Of a stretch of DNA of 64,000 bases, positions 5,547-62,900 are shown piece by piece. Source of the stretch: an uncultured Candidatus Saccharibacteria bacterium (GTDB lineage Bacteria; Patescibacteriota; Minisyncoccia; Phycocordibacterales; Zambryskibacteraceae); assembly GCA_964357635.1 (NCBI GenBank), contig CAYHLZ010000001.1, forward strand, positions 44,917 through 108,916, in the 5' to 3' direction. Positions within the stretch are counted from its first letter, which is position 1; the number at the start of each line of letters is the position of its first letter. The position numbers and the translations under genes were made by a program. The notes under the pieces are model-generated. The model saw only the letters and a list, made by a program, of their open reading frames with translations, was not told where the DNA came from and ran no database searches.

Positions 5547-5550
5547 AGAG

Positions 5551-6252
5551 TTACCTAAGAAGTGCGTCAATTTTACTTTTTACCATATCAATGGGTTCAG
5601 CTCCATTTATTACTGTTTTCTTACCATCGCGAGTGATAATGACAGAGTAAGGAGTTCCTCGTGCACCTGCTTTTACTGCTTCCTCCACACTCTTTGAGAT
5701 AAATTCAGCATGTCTGCCACTTGAGAGACAGGTATTAAATGCTGATTCATTGAGACCGATAGCTGTGGCAATCTTTGGCAACTCTTTTGCGTCAAGTGAG
5801 TCGTTGGAGTTTGTTGTTAAGAAAAGTTTGTCTATATACTTCCAGAAAGCTTGATTACCGCCGAGCTCATTAGCACATTCTGTGGCTTCTGCTTCTTTAG
5901 GTGCCTTAGCATGTAGTTGGACTATAGGAAAATGTCTGTAAACCCAAGAAACCTTACCGGCGTAGTCACGAACGACCTGCTGCATGGTTTGGTGGAAAAC
6001 CTTACAAAAAGGACATTCAGTATCTGAATATTCAACGATTACTAACTCTGCGCTACTACTGCCCAAGATGTGGTCTTTAGCAGTTACCGGAGCGACATCA
6101 ATTTCAGTTGTAGATGGATTTTCTGCCCTTTGGGTGAGTGTGCCAGTGCTGCTACCTCCAAAGTAAATTGCGGCTGCTATAAAGGCACCAGCTACCACAA
6201 TTGCGAGAGGTACGAGGTGTCTATTGAGAGGGCTTTGTTCCATGTTATCCAT
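5551..6252 (-). CDS. DsbA-family thiol:disulfide oxidoreductase, membrane-anchored
   Basis: N-terminal hydrophobic segment then thioredoxin-fold active site TECPFCKVFH (CxxC). Confidence 0.7.
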   Translation of the reverse strand: MDNMEQSPLNRHLVPLAIVVAGAFIAAAIYFGGSSTGTLTQRAENPSTTEIDVAPVTAKDHILGSSSAELVIVEYSDTECPFCKVFHQTMQQVVRDYAGKVSWVYRHFPIVQLHAKAPKEAEATECANELGGNQAFWKYIDKLFLTTNSNDSLDAKELPKIATAIGLNESAFNTCLSSGRHAEFISKSVEEAVKAGARGTPYSVIITRDGKKTVINGAEPIDMVKSKIDALLR

Positions 6253-20191: not shown

Positions 20192-20209
20192 TGTAAAGTT
20201 GTCTTTACA
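20192..20209. promoter_or_regulatory. Palindromic operator-like site TGTAAAG-N4-CTTTACA upstream of XRE regulator
   Basis: Perfect 7-bp inverted arms 34 bp upstream of the 20243 start; second copy at 20827..20844. Confidence 0.45.
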
Positions 20210-20242
20210 TTAAGCTTTGTTTTTTCTATACTGAAGAGAGTC

Positions 20243-20826: not shown

Positions 20827-20844
20827 TGTAAAGTCTACTTTACA
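20827..20844. promoter_or_regulatory. Second TGTAAAG-N4-CTTTACA palindrome, upstream of thioredoxin-like/DsbD-like genes
   Basis: Identical 7-bp arms as the site at 20192..20209. Confidence 0.45.
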
Positions 20845-20899
20845 TTACATTCTATTTTTTATATAATCAAAATGTTAAGCATTACTAACATAACTAATT

Positions 20900-42954: not shown

Positions 42955-43635
42955 ATGAATACAGAAAAGAAACCACAATGCATTGGCATAATCTTAGACG
43001 GTAATCGTCGTTGGGCGAAAAAGAACGGACTGCCCTCGCTTGAAGGACACCGACGCGGGGTGGAGAAGTTGAAAGAGACTGCGCGCCAGGTTCGCGACCG
43101 AGGGATAAAGCATTTAGCAGTTTTTGCTTTTTCAACCGAGAATTGGAATCGGAGTAAAGAGGAGGTGGGCTACCTCTTGAAACTTTTCCGTTCCGCAATG
43201 GATGAATTTTTCGAAGAACTCTCAAAAGAAAATATCAGAGTGAAGTTTGCGGGAGAGCGTGAACGCCTTGACCCCGATACGCAAGCTGCCATGACTCGCA
43301 TGGAAGAGGCAAGTCAAGAAAATACTGGACTAACCTTGTGGGTATGTTTCTCCTACGGCGGGCGTGCCGAGATTGTCGCAGCGGCAAATAATGCCAAAAA
43401 AGAAGGCGAGATTACAGAAGAGTCACTCAATAAAAATCTATGGACCAGAGATATGCCTGACCCAGATATTATTATTCGCACAGGTGGGGAGAAACGTCTC
43501 TCTGGCTTCCTCACTTGGCAGAGTATCTACTCAGAACTTTTCTTAATTAACGAATACTGGCCCGACTTTAGCGAAAAAATCTTGGACTCTGTCCTATCAG
43601 AATTCAGCGAACGCACGAGAAGAATGGGGAAATAA
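42955..43635 (+). CDS. uppS: Undecaprenyl diphosphate synthase (cis-prenyltransferase)
   Basis: IGIILDGNRRWAKK, AFSTENWNR, RTGGEKRLSGF. Confidence 0.9.
   Translation: MNTEKKPQCIGIILDGNRRWAKKNGLPSLEGHRRGVEKLKETARQVRDRGIKHLAVFAFSTENWNRSKEEVGYLLKLFRSAMDEFFEELSKENIRVKFAGERERLDPDTQAAMTRMEEASQENTGLTLWVCFSYGGRAEIVAAANNAKKEGEITEESLNKNLWTRDMPDPDIIIRTGGEKRLSGFLTWQSIYSELFLINEYWPDFSEKILDSVLSEFSERTRRMGK
43566..43635 (+). repeat. Direct repeat copy 1: native 3' end of uppS
   Basis: Aligns at ~85% identity with 44830..44899; both in frame, encoding FSEKILDSV..FSERTRRMGK*. Confidence 0.8.
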
Positions 43636-43678
43636 AAACTGGCCGCCCCTGTTGGGAAGCGGCCAGTAAACGAACACA

Positions 43679-44416
43679 TCAAATCATCTTGAAGGACTGG
43701 TCCTTGGCACCGGTCTTTTCGGCAAGCAACCTCGCCCTTTCCCGAAGTTGGTTTACTTCGGTTTTATTCTTGCTGATACGGTCAAGGAATCGAGCCGAGT
43801 GCCAGAAGATACGTGCTGCTTGCCGAGGCTCTTCCTTCTCGGCTTCCTTGGCGGCATTAATTGCTGCCTGCACCTCCCTTATCACTAAGTTCCGGCGTCT
43901 ACACCTGCCACTAAACCTGCTACCTTCGTGCCAGTAAATATCTGCTCGCCCGACGTGGAGGTGTCCCCGCGTGTGGGCTTCCACCAAGCGCTTGTTGAGC
44001 GCCTCGGTAATACACCTCTTCGCCTCGGCATACTTGAAGTGACTGCGCAGGACGCTCTGGCGAATGTTGCACATGCCTGCTGTCATCTTTCCGTAGCCGC
44101 CCATGAGCTTAACAGCGCGATTTGAGCAGGGAAGCGCGCGTGAGTAGCAAACCACGGCAAGTGGAAGCCATGTGAAGCACCACGCTACGGTTCTCGCCGG
44201 GGCACGCCATCCCGATTGAAACGCTGCCTTGAGTTGCGCAAGCGCCGTGCGGTAAATTGAGTAGTAGGTACTCGAGAGCGCGGAGTAACCCTTCGCCCGC
44301 ACCCACCTGTCCGTTGAACTGAGGTTCAACTCGTTGTCCTTCCGTGATTTGGAAAAGAGCTCAAGCTTGGCGCGAAACGATGTCTCGCTCCAGCTCAGGT
44401 CGCTGATTGATGTCAT
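43679..44416 (-). CDS. Hypothetical protein (islet cargo)
   Basis: 245-aa ORF, GC-rich, no motif. Confidence 0.35.
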   Translation of the reverse strand: MTSISDLSWSETSFRAKLELFSKSRKDNELNLSSTDRWVRAKGYSALSSTYYSIYRTALAQLKAAFQSGWRAPARTVAWCFTWLPLAVVCYSRALPCSNRAVKLMGGYGKMTAGMCNIRQSVLRSHFKYAEAKRCITEALNKRLVEAHTRGHLHVGRADIYWHEGSRFSGRCRRRNLVIREVQAAINAAKEAEKEEPRQAARIFWHSARFLDRISKNKTEVNQLRERARLLAEKTGAKDQSFKMI

Positions 44417-44534
44417 CGCAATCTCCCTTTTTGGGGTGTTTCTAAGCCTATCCCTATAATAACATATATTTTGCCTTTATGCAAGTAAAAGAGCTTTGGG
44501 CATACACCCAAAGCTCTCTGGCTTCGAAACAAGG

Positions 44535-44768
44535 TCAGTGTTCGAGTGGGGCGCAGTCATACGAGTCCCAAGAACCATCGTATGTTCCGCGTACCGAGAT
44601 GGCTCGGCCGTCTTTCGTTCTGCACTCGGCTTCGAACTCAACATCCTGTCCGTTCTGGGACATTTTGAGCTCGAGAAGCTCACCAAGCTCGCCCCTGTTT
44701 GCTGCGGCAAGGGCGCCGGCGACAAACTTCTTCTCATCTTCAGTGAAAGGTTTAATAGGTGTCAACAT
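44535..44768 (-). CDS. Hypothetical small protein (islet cargo)
   Basis: 77-aa ORF, GC-rich. Confidence 0.3.
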   Translation of the reverse strand: MLTPIKPFTEDEKKFVAGALAAANRGELGELLELKMSQNGQDVEFEAECRTKDGRAISVRGTYDGSWDSYDCAPLEH

Positions 44769-44829
44769 GAGCCCTCCTTCATTTCTGGGTGCACTGTAAC
44801 TGTTTGCAGAAAAAAGTCAATTTTTACAG

Positions 44830-44899
44830 GCTTCAGCGAAAAAATACTTGACTCTGTTATCTACGGATTCAGCGAACGCACTAGAAGAATGGGGAAGTA
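44830..44899 (+). repeat. Direct repeat copy 2: diverged duplicate of uppS 3' end (encodes ...FSEKILDSVIYGFSERTRRMGK*)
   Basis: See copy 1. Substitutions are mostly synonymous/conservative, suggesting an element-borne copy from a related genome. Confidence 0.8.
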
Positions 44900-45019
44900 A
44901 TTTGTGGACTACAGTGTAAAATCTTTTTACTAGATAGGGGTATTGACTGAGTCCTTTTTTTGTTGTTGATTGTGTGTAGTGTTGTTGCAACGCGCAGGCA
45001 TGAGTGATATTCTATAGAA

Positions 45020-45370
45020 ATGGAAAAAAATAAAGAATTAGGACAGCTCCTAAAGGAGCTGCGCGAGAAAGCTTTTTACGGAATGGGGCTAAGACGGGTG
45101 GCCGATAAAGTTGGTATTGATTATGCTCACATTTTCCGAATTGAAGTTGGTCAATATATACCTTCAGACGAAAACCTTATTAAACTACTCGATGCTTATA
45201 AGGCAAATCATCAGGAGAAAATGACTGCTTTTAAGTTAGCGCGCCTTACTCCTGGTTTCCATAAAGTTATTGAGCAGGCACGAAAGTACTTGGGAAGTGA
45301 TAAAGCTCTTGCTGGAGCTTTTTTCCGTAAAGAAAAAGGAAATAAGAGAAGCGAAAAAGATGAAAAATAA
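45020..45370 (+). CDS. XRE-family HTH transcriptional regulator
   Basis: HTH GMGLRRVADKVGIDYAHIFRIEVGQYIPS; paired with ImmA/IrrE gene 3 nt downstream. Confidence 0.7.
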   Translation: MEKNKELGQLLKELREKAFYGMGLRRVADKVGIDYAHIFRIEVGQYIPSDENLIKLLDAYKANHQEKMTAFKLARLTPGFHKVIEQARKYLGSDKALAGAFFRKEKGNKRSEKDEK

Positions 45371-45372
45371 AT

Positions 45373-46071
45373 ATGAGGCAATCCGAACCAAATGAATACT
45401 TTCCTTTTTTGACCAACGAGATGGTCGAGGAACAGGCACGAACAGACTTTCTGAAGTATCAGAGAGCAACAGGTCGAGAACTAACCTTTCCTATTTATCC
45501 AGATGAAATCCTTCAAGGGTTGTGGGGTGTTACTGTGGAGTATTTAGATGAGGTTTTTTCATCTGACAATGAGGAGGTACTAGCCTGTTTTATTCCTGAG
45601 AAGCAAGTTGTTTATCTAAACAACTCAATGCGGGGATTAGAGGGTCGTGTTTCTTTCAGTCTTGCTCATGAAGCTGGACACGTGTCTCTTCACAGTTTTC
45701 TCGCAAAAGTTGGATATAAGGAGGCGTTGTGTCGTGGGAAACTATCCGTGGGTGACAAGGAGAAAATGATAGAGAGACAAGCTGATAGGTATGCTTCGGC
45801 GCTTCTTATGCCGAAGAATGTTTTGCTCGTTAAGTTAGGACAACTTGAGCATACTCCAACTGGGGTTTTTGACTTAACCATTTACGGTAAAAAGCTCAGT
45901 GATTTTTTTGGAGTTTCTCATCAAGCACTTGAAAGAAGGCTGGCTGATCTTGGTATCAGTTCCATTGGTGGTTACTATGGTGTTAAAACCAAGAAAGTGT
46001 CAGAAAAGTTCTTTGAAGATATGGAAGCAGAGAGGACAACTTGGTCAGCCCACAAAAAAGGTCGAGTATAA
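45373..46071 (+). CDS. ImmA/IrrE-family metallopeptidase (DUF955)
   Basis: HEAGHVSLH zinc motif and downstream ADRYASALLMPKNVL typical of ImmA/IrrE. Confidence 0.75.
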   Translation: MRQSEPNEYFPFLTNEMVEEQARTDFLKYQRATGRELTFPIYPDEILQGLWGVTVEYLDEVFSSDNEEVLACFIPEKQVVYLNNSMRGLEGRVSFSLAHEAGHVSLHSFLAKVGYKEALCRGKLSVGDKEKMIERQADRYASALLMPKNVLLVKLGQLEHTPTGVFDLTIYGKKLSDFFGVSHQALERRLADLGISSIGGYYGVKTKKVSEKFFEDMEAERTTWSAHKKGRV

Positions 46072-46218
46072 CAAAGAGCGCCCCAGTTGTAGCTGGGACG
46101 CTCTTCGAATACTTGTACCTGTGGTAGTCGCTTTCGAGTAGAAATAACTATTCCAAGCACAAAATTACTAACAAATTAATACTACCACAAGGGGTGTATT
46201 CGGCAAGCAAAAGCACAT

Positions 46219-46683
46219 ATGTCGTTATACATTCTCAGGGCTAAGCCAAATCCTTCCGGTAAGGACAAATATGGTCAGTATGCCCCCAATTCTCAGCAAA
46301 ATGCAGAGTGGATTGATATTCAAAACACTAGCGGTAAGGCTCTGAATATGACCGGTGTAAAAGTCTACGATCACAAGTTTGATGTTTACGGAAGAGATGA
46401 AGGTCGTAGGGAGGTTTACAAGTTTGGTAGTTGGGATATGCCTGTTAATACGGTAGTCCGTATTCATTCGGGTGATCGTGTAGAGATTAGCTCACTACCT
46501 TCCATTGATAGAGATGGTGCTAACTACCACTTTTTCACATGGCAACCTTACGTTTGGAATAACGTATGGGGTGACACTGCAGAAGTGCGTAATTCTACCG
46601 ACCTATTAATCGACAAGGCATCTTACGGACGTAATCCAACTGAGGGCGCAATACTTAAGCGCTACGGAGACCATCTGATCTAA
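46219..46683 (+). CDS. Lamin-tail-domain (LTD)-like protein
   Basis: YILRAKPNPSGKDKYG...AEWIDIQNTSGKALNMTGVKV...VVRIHSG resembles the LTD consensus (NP.G.D...EWIEL.N.s...vdLsGw). Confidence 0.5.
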   Translation: MSLYILRAKPNPSGKDKYGQYAPNSQQNAEWIDIQNTSGKALNMTGVKVYDHKFDVYGRDEGRREVYKFGSWDMPVNTVVRIHSGDRVEISSLPSIDRDGANYHFFTWQPYVWNNVWGDTAEVRNSTDLLIDKASYGRNPTEGAILKRYGDHLI

Positions 46684-46763
46684 AGAAGCTTGTTTATAGT
46701 TCAAAAGACCTCACTTCTGTTGGGGTTTTTTGATTTGTCGTAATCCAACTAAAACTTCAATTT

Positions 46764-46839
46764 TGGTGGACCCTACCGGATTCGAACCGGTGACCTCCTC
46801 ATTGCAAATGAGGCGCTCTACCAACTAAGCTAAGGGCCC
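46764..46839 (-). tRNA. tRNA-Ala (anticodon TGC) with encoded CCA
   Basis: Reverse complement GGGCCCTTAGCTTAGTTGGTAGAGCGCCTCATTTGCAATGAGGAGGTCACCGGTTCGAATCCGGTAGGGTCCACCA; G3:U70 pair, canonical D- and T-loops. Confidence 0.85.
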
Positions 46840-46921
46840 TTCGATGGACTCAGGACAAGCCCAATAAGGCAAAAGTATAGTGGACAAAGACCGAAAAATC
46901 AATTAAAAATAATCAATAAAA

Positions 46922-46995
46922 GGGCCTATAGTATAGTAGTAACACGCGTCCATGGCATGGACGAGTCGCGAGTGCGATTCTCGCTAGGTCCACCA
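46922..46995 (+). tRNA. Atypical tRNA-like element (Ala-like acceptor with G3:U70, anticodon-loop GGC, degenerate D- and T-loops; possible pseudo-tRNA)
   Basis: GGGCCTA...TAGGTCCACCA acceptor with G3:U70; anticodon arm CGTCC-ATGGCAT-GGACG; T-arm GCGAG-TGCGATT-CTCGC lacks TTC; D-arm lacks GG. CCA abuts the ATG of the next ORF. Confidence 0.35.
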
Positions 46996-47456
46996 TGTTT
47001 CAAGAAATTTTTTACATCTTCATAATAGCAATGTCTCCTGTGGTGGAGATTAGCGGAGCGATACCTCTTGCTATTCTCACCTTTGACTTCAGTCCGCTTC
47101 AGGCGTACTCGGTGGCGCTTCTTGGAAACCTCATCCCGCCACTCTTTCTCATACCGTTTCTCGGCAGGGTAGACGCCTTTCTTTCTGCTCGCTCTGAACT
47201 CTGGCAAAGGGTCTTTGGTAAGTTTCTCGCAAGGACTAAGGATAACCACATAAAGAAATTTGAAGTTATGAAGGAGCTTGTCCTATTTGTCCTTCTAGTT
47301 ATTCCAACTCCTCTCACTGGCGTCTGGACTGCCTCACTTCTCTCGCACATCTTTGGTATCTCTCTTAGAAAAGCGTATCCTCTCATCGTCTTCGGCCAGC
47401 TTATAGCGGGAATAGTTGTTATTGGAGCAACTCTTGGAATCAGTGCGATTTTTTAG
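46995..47456 (+). CDS. Small polytopic membrane protein (small multidrug-export-like family?)
   Basis: Four hydrophobic helices; loose resemblance to the Sm_multidrug_ex family; immediately upstream of the TasA-like cluster. Confidence 0.4.
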   Translation: MFQEIFYIFIIAMSPVVEISGAIPLAILTFDFSPLQAYSVALLGNLIPPLFLIPFLGRVDAFLSARSELWQRVFGKFLARTKDNHIKKFEVMKELVLFVLLVIPTPLTGVWTASLLSHIFGISLRKAYPLIVFGQLIAGIVVIGATLGISAIF

Positions 47457-47758
47457 TATATGTTACGACACGGTTTTATTTGGTTTACTAGTTGTTGACA
47501 ATTTAATCTCGGGAGTAAACTGCCTTGATGTTCTACCCTTGTTTCTAAACGAGGTGTGGGACATAACGATTAAGCGGGCTTACCGTCGGTCGCTCCGGCA
47601 CCCCTAGACAGAGGTGTGGTCGCGACGACTCAAGTGCTTATTCTTGATTGGTCGCTAGCGCACCTATGTGGTGCTGCAGTCGACCGAGGGCCTAGCCGCA
47701 CTGTGTTGTAAGACACAGAGTGCTATTAAAAGAAATTAGAAATAATTAATAATAAAAT

Positions 47759-48670
47759 ATGCAAAAAGTTCTTAGTATTCAGAGGATCCTCCTCGCTCTT
47801 GGAATCTTGGTATTCCTCGGAGCCGCTATCGTCGGTGCCACAGGCGCCTTCTTCAGCGACACGGAGACCTCAACAGGTAACACGTTTGCCGCAGGTGAAC
47901 TCGATCTCACGATTGACAACTCAAGCTACGGCTTCGATTACAATGACCCAAACAACCGCGAACCAATAGGCAATTGGGGTTTAAACGCGTCTAACTCATG
48001 GACTCTTCGAAATCTCAATGAATGTGGTCCGCTGGATCAGAATGGTGCCACGACTACTGGCCCATGTCTCTTCTTCAACTTCGACGACTTGAAGCCGGGA
48101 GATTACGGTGAGGATACCATCTCGCTCCATGTGCAGAACGACGCCTACGCATGTATGGCGCTTAAACTCACAGCAACACCTGAAAATGATGTAAATGAGG
48201 CAGAAGCTGAGGGTCTTCCTGTAGATACAACGCTCGGAAGTGATGAGGGTGAACTTCAGAATTATCTCAACTTCGCCTTCTGGCGTGACGACGGAGACAA
48301 TGTCTTCGAATGTACCAGTGTCGGAGAGGACCAAACAACATGTCTCGCCACGGAACAAATTCTCTTCCAAGATTCAGCAACGAATCTTAGCCAAGTTCCA
48401 AACACAATTGCGGACCCCGGGAACGGACAGGTGTTGAAAGCCGACGATACGTACTATGTCGGCAAGTCATGGTGCTTCGGCAAAATGAGTCAAAATCCAG
48501 TTCAGAACAACGGCAATGCCGCTCCTACTGAAACTACCACAGGATTCACCTGCGACGGTGTAGGCAATCACAATGATGCCCAGACAGATGGTATTGTTGT
48601 GAACGTTGAATTCTCTGCGGTACAGGCAAGGAACAATGCAGGCTTCCTTTGCTCACCGCTACTACAATAA
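47759..48670 (+). CDS. TasA/CalY (camelysin)-like secreted protein with SipW-cognate signal region, paralogue 1
   Basis: Signal peptide then ATGAFFSDTETSTGNTFAAGELDLTIDN (compare Bacillus CalY ...FAFFSDKEVSNNTFAAGTLDL). Shared paralogue block FDDLKPGDYGEDTISLHVQNDAYACM. C-terminal FSAVQARNN. Confidence 0.65.
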   Translation: MQKVLSIQRILLALGILVFLGAAIVGATGAFFSDTETSTGNTFAAGELDLTIDNSSYGFDYNDPNNREPIGNWGLNASNSWTLRNLNECGPLDQNGATTTGPCLFFNFDDLKPGDYGEDTISLHVQNDAYACMALKLTATPENDVNEAEAEGLPVDTTLGSDEGELQNYLNFAFWRDDGDNVFECTSVGEDQTTCLATEQILFQDSATNLSQVPNTIADPGNGQVLKADDTYYVGKSWCFGKMSQNPVQNNGNAAPTETTTGFTCDGVGNHNDAQTDGIVVNVEFSAVQARNNAGFLCSPLLQ

Positions 48671-48831
48671 GTTTATCTCTAGCCCTTCGACAAGCTCAGG
48701 GTAAACCAACCCTGACTCGCGAATAGCCGAATCCGCCCCGATACAGCATCGGAGCGGAGGGGCTGTTCATGAGAACAGCGAGCACAATCGGATTAACAGC
48801 GAATCAGACATTATTAAAATTAAAAATATTT

Positions 48832-50064
48832 ATGTTAAGCATATTCTCTAACGTGCGCGTACTCTTCGGCTCGCTCATCATAGTGGGCGCCGTGGCGGCT
48901 CTCGCGACGGGACTCACTGGCGCATTTTTCTCCGACACAGAAACGTCAACCAACAACCGCTTCACCGCAGGCGCCATAGACCTGAAGGTTGATAACGAAT
49001 CTTGGTACAACGGAAATGAGTGTGTGCAGAGCGAAGAAGGTTGGGTCTGGCAGGGTCCTAACCCTTACCCAGTTTCCGGTACGCCATGCACGACCTCATT
49101 CCTACCTTCTGACCTTGACGCTGGCTACCTCTTTTTTGATTTCCTAGACCTTAAACCAGATGACGAAGGTGAAGACACCATCTCTCTTCATGTTCAAAAC
49201 GATGCATGGGCATGTATGGACCTGACACTCACATCAAATGACGACAACTCAACATCAGAGCCAGAGAGTTTGGTAGACCAAGCAGAAGATCCGCTTAACT
49301 TCTGGGACGGCGAGCTTGCGCAAAATCTTCAGTTCCTATGGTGGGCTGACGATGGCGACAATGTTCACGAGGTGGGAGAGAAGGTGCTCTCTGACGGTGT
49401 TGAAACTCTCTACAACCTTGCCACCTCTACTGGCGCCTTCTCGATAGTGCTCGCTGATTCTACGCAGAACGCTTGGGGCCTCCCCGCGGGCACCCCACTT
49501 CCTGCAAACGAAACTGTTTATATTGCCAAAGCATGGTGTCTAGGCACTCTTACCGATGATCCTGTACCAGACAATGGCGGCGTAAACCCCGGAGTTGACC
49601 CTGGCGTAAACTGTGATGGCACACTTCTTAATAACCTCACACAAACAGATGGAGTGGAGCTGACACTTGCCTTCAGCGCAGTACAGGCTAGAAACAACGA
49701 ATCTTTCCGCTGTAACCCGCCAGATACCAGAACCGCAACACTTACCGTCAATAAAGCAACCCTAACCTCAACCGCAGGTATTGAAGTTGGCGACTTTACT
49801 CTCCACATTGTTGGTCCGAATGGAGATCAAGTTGTCTCGGATGAAATTCCAACCGCCGGTCTGCCCGCTGGGTCGTACACGACATATGAAGTTGTCACGG
49901 GTGATGTTTTAGGAAAGACGTTTATTACAACGTTCAGTGGTGTTTGTTCAAATGTTGGAAACAGCATGACATCATTACCATTCGCAGTGAATCCTAATGA
50001 CAACGTTACCTGCGTTATTCTAAACGATGAGGTAGGCGATTTCATTCCTCCTACCTTCAACTAG
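48832..50064 (+). CDS. TasA/CalY-like secreted protein, paralogue 2
   Basis: LTGAFFSDTETSTNNRFTAGAIDLKVDN; FLDLKPDDEGEDTISLHVQNDAWACMDL; FSAVQARNN. Start taken at internal ATG giving a typical signal peptide (ORF track starts 48769). Confidence 0.65.
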   Translation: MLSIFSNVRVLFGSLIIVGAVAALATGLTGAFFSDTETSTNNRFTAGAIDLKVDNESWYNGNECVQSEEGWVWQGPNPYPVSGTPCTTSFLPSDLDAGYLFFDFLDLKPDDEGEDTISLHVQNDAWACMDLTLTSNDDNSTSEPESLVDQAEDPLNFWDGELAQNLQFLWWADDGDNVHEVGEKVLSDGVETLYNLATSTGAFSIVLADSTQNAWGLPAGTPLPANETVYIAKAWCLGTLTDDPVPDNGGVNPGVDPGVNCDGTLLNNLTQTDGVELTLAFSAVQARNNESFRCNPPDTRTATLTVNKATLTSTAGIEVGDFTLHIVGPNGDQVVSDEIPTAGLPAGSYTTYEVVTGDVLGKTFITTFSGVCSNVGNSMTSLPFAVNPNDNVTCVILNDEVGDFIPPTFN

Positions 50065-50123
50065 TTTGCCTTCGTGCTTGTGAGCAGTTTGTTCTTCTTG
50101 GTTTCTGATGACCAGCATAAAAT

Positions 50124-51200
50124 ATGAAAACCCTATCCACGAACCTAGCGATGAGATTAGCGATTATCTTCGCGGTCTCTATGGTGGCTGGCACGGCGTT
50201 TTATGCGCGCGGATTGGAGCCGGGCACTACCTTCGCGCCTGGCAACTTTGACTTCAAGATTGATAGCGAAGCAAGTTACAACGGTAACTTTGTGCCCTCC
50301 GGCACCTGGAGTCTCAAGAATTTGGTACCCGGCGTTGACAGGTTCTTTAACTTCGACGACATCAAACCCGGCGACCAAGGGGAGAACACCATCTCACTCC
50401 ACGCCAACAAAAACGCGTGGATGTGTCTTGACTTCATAAATCTTCAAGAAAACGAGAACGGTATAAACGAACCAGAAAGTGAGCTTGATATCACAGGAAG
50501 TGGTGGGGAACTTGCCGACGGCATGGAATTCTTCTCTTGGAATGACGATGGAGACAACATTTTTGAGCTGGGAGAAAAACCTATCTTTGGAACCTCAACA
50601 CAATCTGCTTCAATCGTTCTTGCTTCCACGACCTATGCCGTGGCTGATGCTTTGGGTGGCCAGGCATGTAAGGCAGACAAGACTTGCTACATCGGCATTT
50701 ACTGGTGTGCTGGAAATCTCGAGGTCAACTTAAATACCGCAGAGATTACTTGTGACCATACGACCCTCGGCAACGAGGCGCAGACCGACATCATGACTGT
50801 TGATGTGCGCTTCCGTGCCTATCCGTCGGAAGAGAACCCCGGGCTTCGCTGCGATGGAAAGAAGATTTCTGGTTGTAGTCCCGGCTACTGGAAGAAATCT
50901 AGCCACTTTGACGAATGGACGGCACCCTACACTCCTAACACTCTTTTCTCTTCTGTCTTTGATAACGCCTTCCCCGGCAAGAACCTGAAGCAGGTCTTGA
51001 CGATAACCGGTGGCGGTCTTAATGCCTTAGGCCGACAGACAGTCGCAGCACTTCTCAATGCGGCAAATCCTGAGGTTGGTTATGCCTACAGCGTCGCGGA
51101 GGTAATATCTATGTTTAACGCTGTCTACCCCGGTGGCGACTACGAGACGCTGAAAAACCTCTTTGAAAAACACAACACTAAGTTTTGTCCTCTGAATTAA
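50124..51200 (+). CDS. TasA/CalY-like secreted protein, paralogue 3 (more divergent)
   Basis: Signal peptide; FDDIKPGDQGENTISLHANKNAWMCLDF block shared with paralogues 1-2. N-terminal motif degenerate (TTFAPGNFDFKIDSE). Confidence 0.6.
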   Translation: MKTLSTNLAMRLAIIFAVSMVAGTAFYARGLEPGTTFAPGNFDFKIDSEASYNGNFVPSGTWSLKNLVPGVDRFFNFDDIKPGDQGENTISLHANKNAWMCLDFINLQENENGINEPESELDITGSGGELADGMEFFSWNDDGDNIFELGEKPIFGTSTQSASIVLASTTYAVADALGGQACKADKTCYIGIYWCAGNLEVNLNTAEITCDHTTLGNEAQTDIMTVDVRFRAYPSEENPGLRCDGKKISGCSPGYWKKSSHFDEWTAPYTPNTLFSSVFDNAFPGKNLKQVLTITGGGLNALGRQTVAALLNAANPEVGYAYSVAEVISMFNAVYPGGDYETLKNLFEKHNTKFCPLN

Positions 51201-51202
51201 TT

Positions 51203-51766
51203 ATGAAAACTCTGCGTAAAACATTTTACGGCCTCTTTATCCTTCTCATAGTTGGAGCAGCAGGACTCTTCCTTGCCACTCTGCTTCCCATTCCAGGGAA
51301 CGTTGAGGTAAAAATTGTGAAATCTGGTTCCATGGAGCCGACGATACCTACAGGCTCTCTCGTCTTCGTCAAACCTAAGGCAGAGTACTCGGTGGGCGAT
51401 ATTATCACCTTCGGTCAAGATACAAAATCAGAAATACCGACGACGCATAGAATAACGGAGGTTCAGGTTGGGGAGGGTGGAACAGTTTTTATGACCAAGG
51501 GTGACGCAAACGAAGAAGGTGACCCACAGCCCGTGCCAGCAAGCGAAGTTATCGGTCTAGTTTGGTTCCACGTGCCTTATGCGGGCTACATCATAGATCT
51601 TGCGAGACAGCCGTGGGGCTTCACTTTCCTTATCGGTATTCCCGCAGCACTCATCATTATGGACGAGGCCTTGCGCATCATTTCGGAGGTGAGGGAGATG
51701 CGTCGTCGAAGACGCGAGGGTACGATCGGACTTGTTAACGAAACAAACAACAATGAAATGCGTTAG
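51203..51766 (+). CDS. SipW-like (ER/archaeal-type, S26B) signal peptidase I
   Basis: N-terminal TM, then VKSGSMEPTIPTGSLVFVK (Ser box), PTTHRITEV (His box), TKGDANEEGD; C-terminal TM. Starts 3 nt after paralogue 3. Confidence 0.75.
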   Translation: MKTLRKTFYGLFILLIVGAAGLFLATLLPIPGNVEVKIVKSGSMEPTIPTGSLVFVKPKAEYSVGDIITFGQDTKSEIPTTHRITEVQVGEGGTVFMTKGDANEEGDPQPVPASEVIGLVWFHVPYAGYIIDLARQPWGFTFLIGIPAALIIMDEALRIISEVREMRRRRREGTIGLVNETNNNEMR

Positions 51767-52706
51767 ACAAAAAATTCTTGTCCGTAGGCATAAATTTGAC
51801 GACGTAGTCTTCGTACATGAAGTTGTCTCCTATATACCTGAACCCAAACTTGGAAGAGGGCGCCTTTTTACACCGAGACGCATGATCACGACGGCCTTAG
51901 CTGCCCTTTTTCTAGTCTTTATCGGAGCAAATTATGGCGAAGTGACAGATACGGGCGCCTTCTTCAGCGACACAGAAACTTCGGCGGGTAACAGGTTTGT
52001 CGCCAGTCTTCTTGACTTTGTTGCAAGTGGTGGAGCCTTGGGCAAGGTCACACCTCAAGGTCCGGCTATAGAAATACCTTTCACAGTGACTCCTGAAGCC
52101 GGCTCGGTTGTTACAAAGTATCGCATTACTATTGAAAACATTGTTGGCACCCTGTCCCTCTGTGACGCACTTTCCGTGACGGTTAAAGACGGAACGCCAT
52201 TTGCATATACAGGACCCATCGCAGGTCTTAATGGTACAGCGGAGAGCTCTGTCTCTATGGTGCTTGAAGCTTCTCTACCCTCCGACCCAGGTGTTTCGCC
52301 CGAAGACGAGTGTACCTTTGATATAGTTGCGCGTGGTTGGAACCAGCTCGTACCAGAGAACACCGGTTATCTTGATGAAGAGCGCGCACAGGTGGTAATA
52401 AACGACCCGCCAGCCGAGACGACCACTGAACCAAGTCCTTCGCCGGACTCAGGACTTCCGGCTCCTGAACTCCTTCAGGAAACTACAGTTGTTATTGAAC
52501 AACCAAGTGATGAAATCTTGCCGGAAGAAATCCCTGTAGAGAAGGAAGTCCCACAGGAGGAGGCTATAACAGAGGGATCAGTAGAGGAGAACTCTAGTAC
52601 GGAAGAGACCACGCCTGAACCTCCGCCTAGTAACGAAATTTTGCCAGAGCCAGAGGTAGTGTCTGAACCGGTCTTAGAAATGCCCCCAGAGCCAGTTGTG
52701 GAATAA
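51732..52706 (+). CDS. SipW-cognate-type secreted protein, paralogue 4, with C-terminal Pro/Glu-rich repeats
   Basis: TGAFFSDTETSAGNRFVASLLDF after a hydrophobic segment; true start probably the internal Met near 51882 (MITTALAALFLVFIG). C-terminal ~110 aa are PE/EV/EP-rich low complexity. Confidence 0.55.
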   Translation: MLTKQTTMKCVRQKILVRRHKFDDVVFVHEVVSYIPEPKLGRGRLFTPRRMITTALAALFLVFIGANYGEVTDTGAFFSDTETSAGNRFVASLLDFVASGGALGKVTPQGPAIEIPFTVTPEAGSVVTKYRITIENIVGTLSLCDALSVTVKDGTPFAYTGPIAGLNGTAESSVSMVLEASLPSDPGVSPEDECTFDIVARGWNQLVPENTGYLDEERAQVVINDPPAETTTEPSPSPDSGLPAPELLQETTVVIEQPSDEILPEEIPVEKEVPQEEAITEGSVEENSSTEETTPEPPPSNEILPEPEVVSEPVLEMPPEPVVE

Positions 52707-61244: not shown

Positions 61245-62066
61245 ATGTCCAAACTTCAGATAGGTATTGTTGGTCTGCCAAATGTTGGGAAGTCTACGCT
61301 CTTTAATGCACTTACAAAAAAATCTGTACCAGCAGAGAACTATCCCTTCTGCACCATAGACCCTTCCGTTGGTATTGTGCCTGTACCTGACGAAAGGCTA
61401 GAAAAACTTTCTAAGTTATCAAAATCTAAAAAAACTATTCCAGCGGTGGTAGAATTTGTTGATATTGCTGGACTTGTGAAGGGCGCATCGGAGGGGGAAG
61501 GGCTCGGTAACAAATTTCTTTCCCACATTCGCGAGGTGGATGCCATTATTGAAGTGGTTAGAACCTTTGAGGATTCAGACATTATCCATGTGCACGAAAA
61601 GGTTGATCCAATCTTTGACATTGAGATTATTAATATGGAACTTGAGGCAGCGGGGATAAAGAAGCCAACTCTTTATGTTTTAAATATTTCAGAGGTTTCT
61701 GGGCAGATATCGGCAGAATTCAAGTCAAAAATTCCTGGACCGTATCTAGAAGTTGACCCAATTTTCGGCACAGGGCTTGATAAACTTATCATTGAAGCCT
61801 ACAAACTTCTTGATCTAATCACTTTTCTGACTACAGGAGAAGACGAGACAAGAGCCTGGACAACTCGTCGAGGCTCTACTGCACCAGAGGCAGGCAAGTC
61901 AATACACAGTGATTTTCAAGAAAAATTTATACGCGCAGAAGTAATCCACTACGACAAACTTATGGAAGCAGGTTCCTATGCCTTGGCACGCGAGAAGGGT
62001 TGGCTCCGAACGGAGGGGAAGGAGTACATCGTCCAAGATGGTGATGTCATTGAGTTTTTAATCTGA
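61245..62066 (+). CDS. ychF: Ribosome-binding ATPase YchF (short form)
   Basis: G1 GIVGLPNVGKSTLFNAL, G3, C-terminal TGS domain ending QDGDVIEFLI; shorter than canonical. Confidence 0.85.
   Translation: MSKLQIGIVGLPNVGKSTLFNALTKKSVPAENYPFCTIDPSVGIVPVPDERLEKLSKLSKSKKTIPAVVEFVDIAGLVKGASEGEGLGNKFLSHIREVDAIIEVVRTFEDSDIIHVHEKVDPIFDIEIINMELEAAGIKKPTLYVLNISEVSGQISAEFKSKIPGPYLEVDPIFGTGLDKLIIEAYKLLDLITFLTTGEDETRAWTTRRGSTAPEAGKSIHSDFQEKFIRAEVIHYDKLMEAGSYALAREKGWLRTEGKEYIVQDGDVIEFLI
62036..62064 (+). repeat. Direct repeat A1: 3' end of ychF (AGATGGTGATGTCATTGAGTTTTTAATCT)
   Basis: 27/29 identical to 62663..62691; both encode DGDVIEFLI* in frame. Confidence 0.75.
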
Positions 62067-62494
62067 TGAAAATTATTAAACGAAAAGCGAATCTTATACC
62101 TTATCGTTTTGTAGAAAACCACTTCGAATTCCATTTATCTCATCGCTCAAAAACTGCCAAGCAGTATCCTGACAATTGGAGTTTTTGGGGAGGTGGAATA
62201 GAGGGGGATGAAACACCTGAACAGGCATTGATTCGAGAGGTTCAAGAAGAGCTTAATTGGAAACTAAATAAATTTGAATTTCTTGGAACTTATTATGATT
62301 CAATGCCAAATGAAAAATTTATTTTCTTTACCAAGGTCAGTGATGACTTTGAGAAGCAAATAGAAATCCGCGAAAGTCAGGGTGGAAGATTTTTTACAAG
62401 AGAAAATGTTGAGAAGGACGCAAAAATAATTTCCGAAGATAAAAAACCGCTTTTTGACCTAGCTGATCTTCTTACGAAGATGGTAGTGTCGTAG
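62066..62494 (+). CDS. Nudix hydrolase (cargo of ychF-adjacent islet)
   Basis: Nudix box GGGIEGDETPEQALIREVQEELNW. Confidence 0.65.
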   Translation: MKIIKRKANLIPYRFVENHFEFHLSHRSKTAKQYPDNWSFWGGGIEGDETPEQALIREVQEELNWKLNKFEFLGTYYDSMPNEKFIFFTKVSDDFEKQIEIRESQGGRFFTRENVEKDAKIISEDKKPLFDLADLLTKMVVS

Positions 62495-62504
62495 AGTTTA
62501 AGAT
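62478..62504 (+). repeat. Direct repeat B1: 3' end of Nudix gene (AGATGGTAGTGTCGTAGAGTTTAAGAT)
   Basis: Resembles 62863..62889 (first 11 nt identical, ~80% overall). Confidence 0.5.
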
Positions 62505-62519
62505 TTAGGTAAATAAATT

Positions 62520-62693
62520 ATGAAGAAAAAACAAAAAATCACTAAAAAACCAACAAGATCACTTGAAACCATCGCCCACTTCCGTTGCGGGAATTGCGGT
62601 AAATGGTGGTCTATAGGTGATGCACCAATATTAAGGAAAAAATGGTGGTGTCCATGGTGTGGAAAGATGGTGACGTTATTGAGTTTTTAATCT
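62520..62693 (+). CDS. Small zinc-ribbon protein whose last 9 codons duplicate the YchF C-terminus
   Basis: MKKKQKITKKPTRSLETIAHFRCGNCGKWWSIGDAPILRKKWWCPWCGKDGDVIEFLI*; CxxC...CxxC; 3' end equals repeat A2. Confidence 0.35.
62663..62691 (+). repeat. Direct repeat A2: second copy of ychF 3' end
   Basis: See A1. Confidence 0.75.
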
Positions 62694-62862
62694 AGGCAAT
62701 AAAAAAGGTCGCGATGTCATGGAAACGTATGTTGTCCATGACATCCGACCAGGTGAGTTGCAAGACCAGCACCATCACAGGGTAAACCTGATAGTTTGAT
62801 ATCGGCCGTAGGGTCGGGTATCTAATCCGACCTTTCGCAACTTGTCAAAGTATAACATCTAG

Positions 62863-62889
62863 AGATGGTAGTGCGATAGAGCTTAGGAT
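62863..62889 (+). repeat. Direct repeat B2: second copy of Nudix 3'-end sequence
   Basis: See B1; lies just upstream of the 62901 gene. Confidence 0.5.
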
Positions 62890-62900
62890 ATAATATAAAT

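Follow-up and report, generated by a model that had tools for sequence, protein, structure and literature searches.

Displaced 3' gene ends behind uppS and ychF in a groundwater Patescibacterium, and the possible import of a small recombinase-less islet

It is already known that the 3' end of a gene can be replaced by an incoming one while the old end is displaced, as with e14 in icd, with integrative and conjugative elements (ICEs) and cis-mobilizable elements (CIMEs) at fda, and in arrays of Rhs, contact-dependent inhibition (CDI) and type VI secretion system (T6SS) genes. The subject here is such a replacement at uppS, the gene for undecaprenyl-diphosphate synthase, in a stretch of 64,000 nt of contig CAYHLZ010000001.1 (positions 44,917 to 108,916; hereafter the window, numbered from its first base), which belongs to a metagenome-assembled genome (MAG) of the Patescibacteria from Hainich groundwater. 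Directly behind uppS lies an insert of 1.2 kb with two genes, followed by a second copy of the last 70 nt of uppS. What is new with respect to the known systems is that the units are tiny and recombinase-less, that the targets are housekeeping genes which receive a functionally equivalent new end, and that the process recurs in Patescibacteria.

At the 3' end of fda in Streptococcus thermophilus, ICESt1 and ICESt3 occur together with CIMEs, recombinase-less islands that are bounded by att repeats and form arrays through site-specific accretion, and an autonomous ICE with an integrase for this same site is known. The uppS locus resembles fda in its target (the 3' end of a protein gene), in the small recombinase-less islands and in the arrays formed by repeated use of a site, but no autonomous integrase-bearing partner was found for the uppS site. 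In Escherichia coli, e14 (and phage 21) supplies icd with a replacement end and leaves the native end as the icdC fragment of 163 bp (PMC6379469, PMC13626634). Here too, the 3' end of a housekeeping gene is the target, the incoming end is slightly different and the native end persists as a downstream fragment; direct repeats derived from the target, an intact target gene and empty-site alleles are all present. However, e14, a prophage of 15 kb, encodes its own integrase and is excised upon SOS induction, whereas the insert behind uppS is 1.2 kb long, shows no evidence of excision, and has no tyrosine or serine recombinase, either in itself or among the tested neighbours.

In Rhs, CDI and T6SS loci, a new 3' end and the genes downstream of it are likewise anchored in the gene body, the old end is shunted, and serial arrays of orphan ends are formed (PMC2935791, PMC5361080). 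Those genes encode polymorphic toxins with function-changing ends and immunity genes under selection, whereas uppS encodes a housekeeping enzyme whose function the new end leaves unaltered, and selection acts on the cargo, which is unrelated to it. In homology-facilitated illegitimate recombination (HFIR), the incoming DNA is anchored by homology at one side and joined at a short microhomology at the other (PMC2884548, PMC5361080), and for T6SS effector-immunity arrays and Rhs tips, models based on HFIR or on displacement have been put forward (PMC5361080, PMC2884548, PMC2935791). HFIR in the naturally transformable Acinetobacter, Streptococcus pneumoniae and Pseudomonas stutzeri shares its single anchor and microhomology joint with one of the filled relatives discussed below (locus L013), exactly so, but laboratory events are usually insertion-deletions, whereas several of the present cases leave a short duplication of the anchor end. 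Finally, integrons also hold small, often single-gene cassettes in series, separated by a recurring short sequence. There is, however, no intI or attI here, and the recurring sequence is the end of the adjacent housekeeping gene and presumably no attC-type folded site (the genes upstream of the arrays being uvrA, uvrC, ddl, acyP, uppS, or ychF, with no intI); if old ends are displaced, the newest cassette may adjoin the anchor gene.

The features of the uppS locus are the following:

42955-43635, plus strand: uppS, intact (Pfam PF01255 Prenyltransf, profile 1-219 of 219, E 9e-76; NCBIfam uppS)
43566-43635, plus strand: proximal repeat copy, the functional uppS 3' end (70 nt)
43638-43667, minus strand: terminator-like GC-rich hairpin with a T-run for ORF245 (12-bp stem), directly after the uppS stop
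43679-44416, minus strand: ORF245, cargo gene of 245 aa, GC3 0.66, all-helical and TPR-like
44483-44524, minus strand: inverted repeat with 18-nt arms, immediately behind the stop of ORF77; a terminator-like hairpin between this gene and ORF245
44535-44768, minus strand: ORF77, second cargo gene of 77 aa, a small alpha+beta protein, GC3 0.58
44793-44820, minus strand: sigma-70-like promoter for ORF77 (TTGACT-16-TACAGT), ~10 nt from the right edge of the insert
44831-44900, plus strand: distal repeat copy, the displaced native uppS 3' end and a silent remnant, aligning with the uppS end of the relative L037 to past the stop
44899-44909, plus strand: relic AATTTGTGGAC of the ancestral junction at which the uppS stop met the 3' end of tRNA-Ala(tgc) (in L036/L037, uppS abuts tRNA-Ala)

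uppS is the final gene of the conserved block uvrA-uvrC-ddl-acyP-uppS, and the C-terminus of its product agrees with the family consensus. The two repeat copies, in direct orientation, align without gaps over 70 nt with 58 identical positions (83%) and a longest identical run of 15 nt; both are in frame and end in a stop codon, the proximal copy being translated as FSEKILDSVLSEFSERTRRMGK and the distal copy as FSEKILDSVIYGFSERTRRMGK. A blastn comparison of the two flanks of the insert gives an E value of 2e-16, shuffled sequence is expected to contain a 35-mer of the repeat, at up to 3 mismatches, 0.00 times, and the 64-kb window holds two copies only, without a third. The segment between the copies (43636-44830, 1,195 bp) has a GC content of 0.55-0.60 versus about 0.42 around it. 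An earlier note on this DNA, made from the letters alone, had described the proximal copy at the same position, near-identical stop-terminated peptides with exactly these translations, and a compositionally distinct GC-rich segment with two minus-strand open reading frames (ORFs), i.e. ORF245 and ORF77, all of which stands; its coordinates for the distal copy were one base too low, and the identity that it put at ~85% is 83%.

The insertion at the 3' end of uppS is confirmed as genuine. The structure is base-for-base identical in three assemblies (ENA ERZ1292625, which is the NCBI MAG, ENA ERZ1292619 and Logan ERR3858121), made from different samples with different pipelines, and the collapsed-repeat artefact that the earlier note had considered is therefore excluded. 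The empty-site alleles that the same note had suggested looking for in relatives were found in L034/L035, L036/L037, L012 and L082. In relatives with a UppS that is 75-80% identical, the uvrA-uvrC-ddl-acyP-uppS block is syntenic and the gene 3' of uppS varies. In L036/L037, tRNA-Ala(tgc) lies 2 nt behind uppS and is followed by tRNA-Ala(ggc) and a Sm_multidrug_ex gene, an order that recurs in the window at 46764-47456, and in L034 uppS abuts another gene, not tRNA-Ala. Four lineages carry an ORF245 homolog that is convergent on uppS with the same terminator-like hairpin, namely the window, L084, L013/L014 and L033 (the hairpin being kept in L013, L033 and L084). L084 is closest for both proteins (80% aa identity for UppS and 71% for ORF245), and the nucleotide identity of its uppS to that of the window is about equal to that of L037 (75-76%). 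In L033, an uppS remnant of 21-25 nt lies after a disrupted ORF245 homolog, followed by a flank that is homologous to L034.

Together with the 9 nt behind it, the distal copy aligns with L037 across the end of uppS and into the first bases of tRNA-Ala, and therefore it is the native end, still in the context that it had originally. The last 70 nt or more of the intact uppS are the incoming replacement end. The junction relic is repeated as AATTTTGGTGGAC at 46759-46771, at the tRNA-Ala 3' end. Any two of the three sequences (proximal copy, distal copy and L037 ortholog) agree at 58-59 of 70 positions and are thus equally distant, so that the two copies are not recent duplicates of one another, which bears out the suggestion of the earlier note that they came from related but non-identical genomes. 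When the 12 differences between the copies were polarised with five outgroups, the proximal copy had 4-5 derived changes, all synonymous, and the distal copy had 6, half of them synonymous and the other three non-synonymous at conserved positions (L>I, S>Y and E>G, the Glu being otherwise invariant). It follows that the proximal copy has always been under selection, while the distal copy was selected until fairly recently and is now decaying. The synonymous bias of the differences was discarded as a stand-alone proof of xenology, for which it is too weak; the equidistance to L037 is the better argument.

The relative age of the parts can be read from the same comparisons. The linkage between uppS and ORF245, present in four lineages, is old; ORF245 is most similar to its homolog in L084, whose UppS is also the closest at the protein level. 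The remnant, in turn, is as close to the functional ends as those are to each other, and is therefore younger than this linkage. A neutral remnant could not have outlasted such an old linkage, and it therefore seems that the islet and the uppS end were acquired together, from a relative in which they were already linked.

The clearest view of what such an event does to its recipient comes from the filled locus L013 and the empty locus L034, which are near-isogenic (L013 and L034/L035 share 94% identity in uppS and 88% in the flank beyond the insert). Over the first ~375 aligned nt their uppS genes diverge by ~3%, versus 16-26% from ~140 nt before the stop, i.e. the foreign tract of L013 begins upstream of the boundary of the 70-nt repeat in the window. 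In the last part of the gene, L013 is about 35% different from L034, and the C-termini read ILAEYVTRPRRMGK and ILTEYSERHRRMGR, respectively. As this difference lies within an otherwise near-isogenic pair, the filled allele carries a foreign gene end, and a target-site duplication is excluded. At the right joint of L013, ORF77 is cut at codon 15 and fused to the promoter of the flank at a microhomology of 4-7 nt (agtt/gacaaag), with loss of the recipient uppS end and 28 nt of the flank. In this pair, one homologous anchor is combined with one microhomology joint, which is the signature of HFIR and not of a fixed crossover.

As for the cargo, the 1,195-bp segment appears to be a horizontally acquired islet of two genes, ORF245 and ORF77, each with its own predicted promoter and terminator. 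ORF245 belongs to a family that is specific to Patescibacteria (42 close homologs and 258 representative clusters at 50% identity) and has no family in Pfam, PHROG, NCBIfam or PADLOC. Its AlphaFold2 model (pLDDT 96) is entirely helical, with matches in the PDB that are weak and of the generic TPR kind only. Elsewhere, its homologs usually head a small operon with a PP2C phosphatase (19 loci) and an NAD-epimerase (10 loci), and in some cases an APH-type kinase comes next. ORF77 gave no usable match in Pfam, PHROGs, NCBIfam or PADLOC, its fold model is alpha+beta, of moderate confidence and without a significant structural match, and its homologs occur only beside the ORF245 homologs of L013 and L014. 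An Rfam search found no known RNA within the insert. That ORF245 might be a hidden recombinase is ruled out by its all-helical TPR-like fold and its usual operon with a PP2C phosphatase and an epimerase, and a viral origin of the insert was rejected, as the ORF245 family was not found in IMG/VR. The GC content at third codon positions (GC3) is 0.66 in ORF245 and 0.58 in ORF77 versus 0.30-0.47 in the neighbouring genes. However, in each of the four genomes tested, the ORF245 homolog was richer in GC3 than its host (even where it overlaps murC by 4 nt), and therefore the GC contrast is weak evidence for a recent arrival; as proof of recent transfer it was rejected, high GC3 being a trait of the family.

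Two further observations concern the surroundings of ORF245 homologs. In L017 (1991-5264), an apparently truncated homolog and a fragmented APH-like gene form an islet of ~3 kb between tRNA-Ile and its duplicated 3' half; the second tRNA-Ile copy is broken by ~72 nt in the T-loop, and murD-murC follow. In L015, L051, L073 and L038, GC-rich repeats of 50-114 nt that contain hairpins flank ORF245-family operons (5549-5620 and 7458-7535 in L015; 6361-6474 and 8172-8285 in L051), the L015 copies having an inverted stem and flank and a direct loop. These repeats were not counted as att sites, being of the GC-rich hairpin type, and they may be dispersed elements resembling repetitive extragenic palindromic sequences (REP-like).

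The event at uppS is real and recurrent in Patescibacteria. In the window itself, 17 kb from the uppS locus, ychF (61245-62066, ending in ...QDGDVIEFLI*) is followed by three further copies of its last ~30 nt (62476-62508, 62664-62695 and 62862-62893), each of which begins with AGATGGT and is terminated by a stop codon, the second being 93% identical to the functional end. The array contains the following:

62066-62494: NUDIX gene
62520-62690: 56-aa Zn-ribbon ORF
~165 nt: segment with a minus-strand promoter-like site and a hairpin

With three displaced ends at ychF in the same window, the process must be a general one here. A scan of 66 window genes for in-register downstream copies of their last 30 nt returned only uppS and ychF, with no hit in the upstream controls, and among 434 genes of the fetched loci there were, beyond the two window loci, 4 downstream hits against 1 upstream control hit. 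Other duplicated gene 3' ends, which the earlier note had recommended searching for, are thus found at ychF in the window and at L080, L028 and L061 among the fetched loci. The length of the uppS remnant differs between lineages, being 70 nt in the window, 21-25 nt in L033 and ~30 nt in L080.

In L080 (795-1795), which is from another Patescibacterium, two cassettes lie behind uppS, and each is followed by an uppS-end remnant of ~30 nt with the same left boundary. The first, 262 bp long, comprises a small hydrophobic ORF and a promoter on the minus strand; the second holds a 55-aa ORF and a Fic/Doc toxin gene. In L028 (10422-12395), the end of a sugar transferase gene (~27 nt) is repeated after a convergent methyltransferase gene, and in L061 (1979-3508) a gene end of ~70 nt, of which 57 nt are identical, is repeated ~1 kb downstream.

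The reading that we favour, and to which we would give about an even chance, is a homology-anchored (HFIR-like) import from a related genome, which does without a dedicated recombinase. The cell would have taken up DNA of a related Patescibacterium whose uppS and ORF245 were already convergent neighbours, and this DNA would have recombined homologously through the conserved body of uppS as the anchor. On the non-homologous side, an illegitimate or short-homology joint would have been made 70 nt inside the recipient uppS, at 44830/44831 of the window. With the joint inside the gene, the outcome would be a duplication, not a deletion, and the last 70 nt of the recipient would be shunted downstream, which may be called 3'-end displacement. 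Presumably, then, a RecA-type anchor and an illegitimate joint would have acted on DNA that entered by transformation. Being the last gene of a conserved block beside a variable region, uppS is a natural anchor, and it is therefore understandable that the site is repeatedly hit with different cargo. That the remnants vary in length between lineages would follow from joints that are non-specific. In line with HFIR, the left boundary of the foreign tract in L013 does not fall at the repeat boundary of the window and its right joint is a microhomology, and silent old ends are found in arrays (at uppS and ychF in the window and in L080).

Several points weigh against this import. The difference between L013 and L034 could also mean that it was L034 that imported a foreign end, or that a deletion came after an integration. 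A close relative of the window organism with an empty site was not found, and sliding identity, at a level of about 75%, is uninformative on the left edge of the donor tract in its uppS. Moreover, within an array, the left boundary of the remnants is identical to the base (three remnants at ychF and two at the L080 uppS). After a first import, the remnant behind the cargo could act as a short right-hand homology against the functional end of the recipient in later transfers, which would keep the boundary of the array constant; however, such use of remnants as short homology arms is an added assumption, whereas a site-specific crossover predicts constant boundaries directly. The import would also require that HFIR joints can form inside the anchor, with duplications rather than deletions as the outcome.

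The strongest rival is site-specific integration, which we consider possible, though the less probable of the two. The insert would be a non-autonomous element, like a CIME or an integrative mobile element exploiting Xer (IMEX), or a decayed one, with an attP that mimics the last ~70 nt of uppS; the tyrosine or serine recombinase would be encoded elsewhere or lost, insertion would be of the Campbell type, and reuse of the regenerated site would lead to arrays by accretion. Direct repeats of the target 3' end, an intact gene and a presence/absence polymorphism are indeed its classical signature, as for e14 in icd (PMC6379469, PMC13626634), and its best support is that array remnants begin at the same base (R1-R3 at ychF, R1 and R2 in L080). 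Furthermore, in the window the left edge of the repeat falls on the block (CTTCAGCGAAAAAAT) that is best conserved within the uppS end, the duplicated tRNA-Ile 3' half around the 3-kb islet with the ORF245 homolog of L017 is a usual footprint of an integrase, and the adjoining pair of XRE and M78 genes (see below) is typical of integrative elements. Against it stands the search for a recombinase. Neither ORF of the insert matches a recombinase family (nor is the fold of ORF245 recombinase-like), none was found among 20 other window ORFs tested or at about 12 uppS loci of the clade, and none is present among the families shared by at least two of 139 neighbour-family representatives of ORF245 homologs. 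With the same target and related cargo, the boundaries also vary from lineage to lineage (70 versus 21-25 nt), cassettes of 155-430 bp (ychF) or 262 bp (L080) can hardly be decayed elements, and in L013 the tract starts ~140 nt upstream of the stop and a microhomology joint truncates the cargo. It was a site-specific integrative element that the earlier note had proposed. Its view holds for the genuine insertion, the replacement end, the displaced end downstream and the lack of a recombinase in the insert. The att sites and integrase that it implied are not specifically supported, given that no recombinase was found, that the remnants measure 70, about 21-25 and about 30 nt, and that L013 has the tract start and joint just described; the tyrosine or serine recombinase that it had suggested looking for elsewhere did not turn up in the other window ORFs tested.

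A variant of site-specific integration, rather unlikely in our view, is that a trans-acting site-specific recombinase would insert recombinase-less cassettes (155 bp-1.2 kb) at fixed positions in the 3' ends of Patescibacteria housekeeping genes. Each unit may then bring a replacement gene end, the arrays at uppS, ychF and others may resemble an integron without its platform, and the cargo of such a system may comprise ORF245/ORF77, NUDIX, the Fic toxin pair and small peptides.

It is improbable that a circular intermediate was inserted in the manner of Campbell by general homologous recombination through a short uppS-like segment, a model that has been proposed for the displacement of C-terminal tips in Rhs arrays (PMC2935791). 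The topology would be identical, the cargo being flanked on either side by the homologous segment, and no dedicated recombinase would be needed; however, a segment of 70 nt that is 83% identical, and nowhere identical over more than 15 nt in a row, is a very poor substrate for RecA (the 30-nt units at ychF are worse), the origin of the circle is unexplained, and the truncating joint of L013 is unaccounted for. A local origin, either through a long target-site duplication by a transposon-like insertion or through an intragenomic duplication of the uppS end followed by divergence, is very improbable, even though the copies are in direct orientation and exactly flank the insert. There are no terminal inverted repeats around the insert and no transposase, 70 nt is far beyond known target-site duplications, the proximal end of L013 is foreign when compared with its empty relative (~35% different despite 94% identity), and the two window copies differ from each other as much as each differs from the L037 ortholog. 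An assembly artefact (a chimeric join or a collapsed repeat), for which only the metagenomic source of the genome could speak, can practically be dismissed given the three identical assemblies and the homologous filled loci L013, L033 and L084 from other studies.

The genomes of Patescibacteria, or the candidate phyla radiation (CPR), are tiny, and the ways in which they acquire accessory genes are poorly documented; in the loci examined, no integrase or transposase adjoins the accessory genes. The cases at uppS, at ychF and in other CPR contigs represent a concrete and recurrent route, in which genes are stitched to a conserved gene at its edge, together with a replacement for its end, while the old end persists as a datable scar. 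Such scars are easily searched for and give the polarity of an event (native versus incoming), so that they could be used to gauge gene flow in uncultivated lineages, and they could discriminate between uptake with anchored recombination and an undiscovered recombinase.

Behind the junction relic, the window contains a second, separate insertion, bounded by AATTTGTGGAC (44899-44909) and AATTTTGGTGGAC (46759-46771):

44910-46763, plus strand: second insertion, between the junction relic and the intact tRNA-Ala(tgc), absent from L036/L037
45020-45370, plus strand: XRE/CapH-like gene (PADLOC capH-like), in the second insertion
45373-46071, plus strand: M78/CapP-like peptidase gene, in the second insertion
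46219-46683, plus strand: LTD-domain ORF, in the second insertion
46764-46839: tRNA-Ala(tgc), intact

The region behind uppS is a rearrangement hot spot. In L012, the block of tRNA-Ala(tgc), tRNA-Ala(ggc) and Sm_multidrug_ex (46764-47456 in the window) is inverted relative to the window and L037 (5683-6457), and an extra tRNA-Ala(cgc) stands directly after uppS.

Further downstream in the window, a GC-rich segment between the Sm_multidrug_ex gene and an M73-like ORF (47470-47750) folds at -109 kcal/mol, with z = -6.3 versus shuffles, and has no Rfam match at the gathering score or at E <= 1. It is followed at 47759-52706 by a GC-richer (0.49-0.50) run of paralogous ORFs with repeated internal segments, two of which have weak N-terminal matches to Peptidase_M73 (camelysin-like); these ORFs look like a family of secreted or surface proteins. 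Elsewhere, a motif of 44 nt at 20192-20235 and 20827-20870 (a hairpin TGTAAAG...CTTTACA, then a TATACT/TATAAT-like box) precedes two consecutive small genes and is probably a shared operator/promoter.

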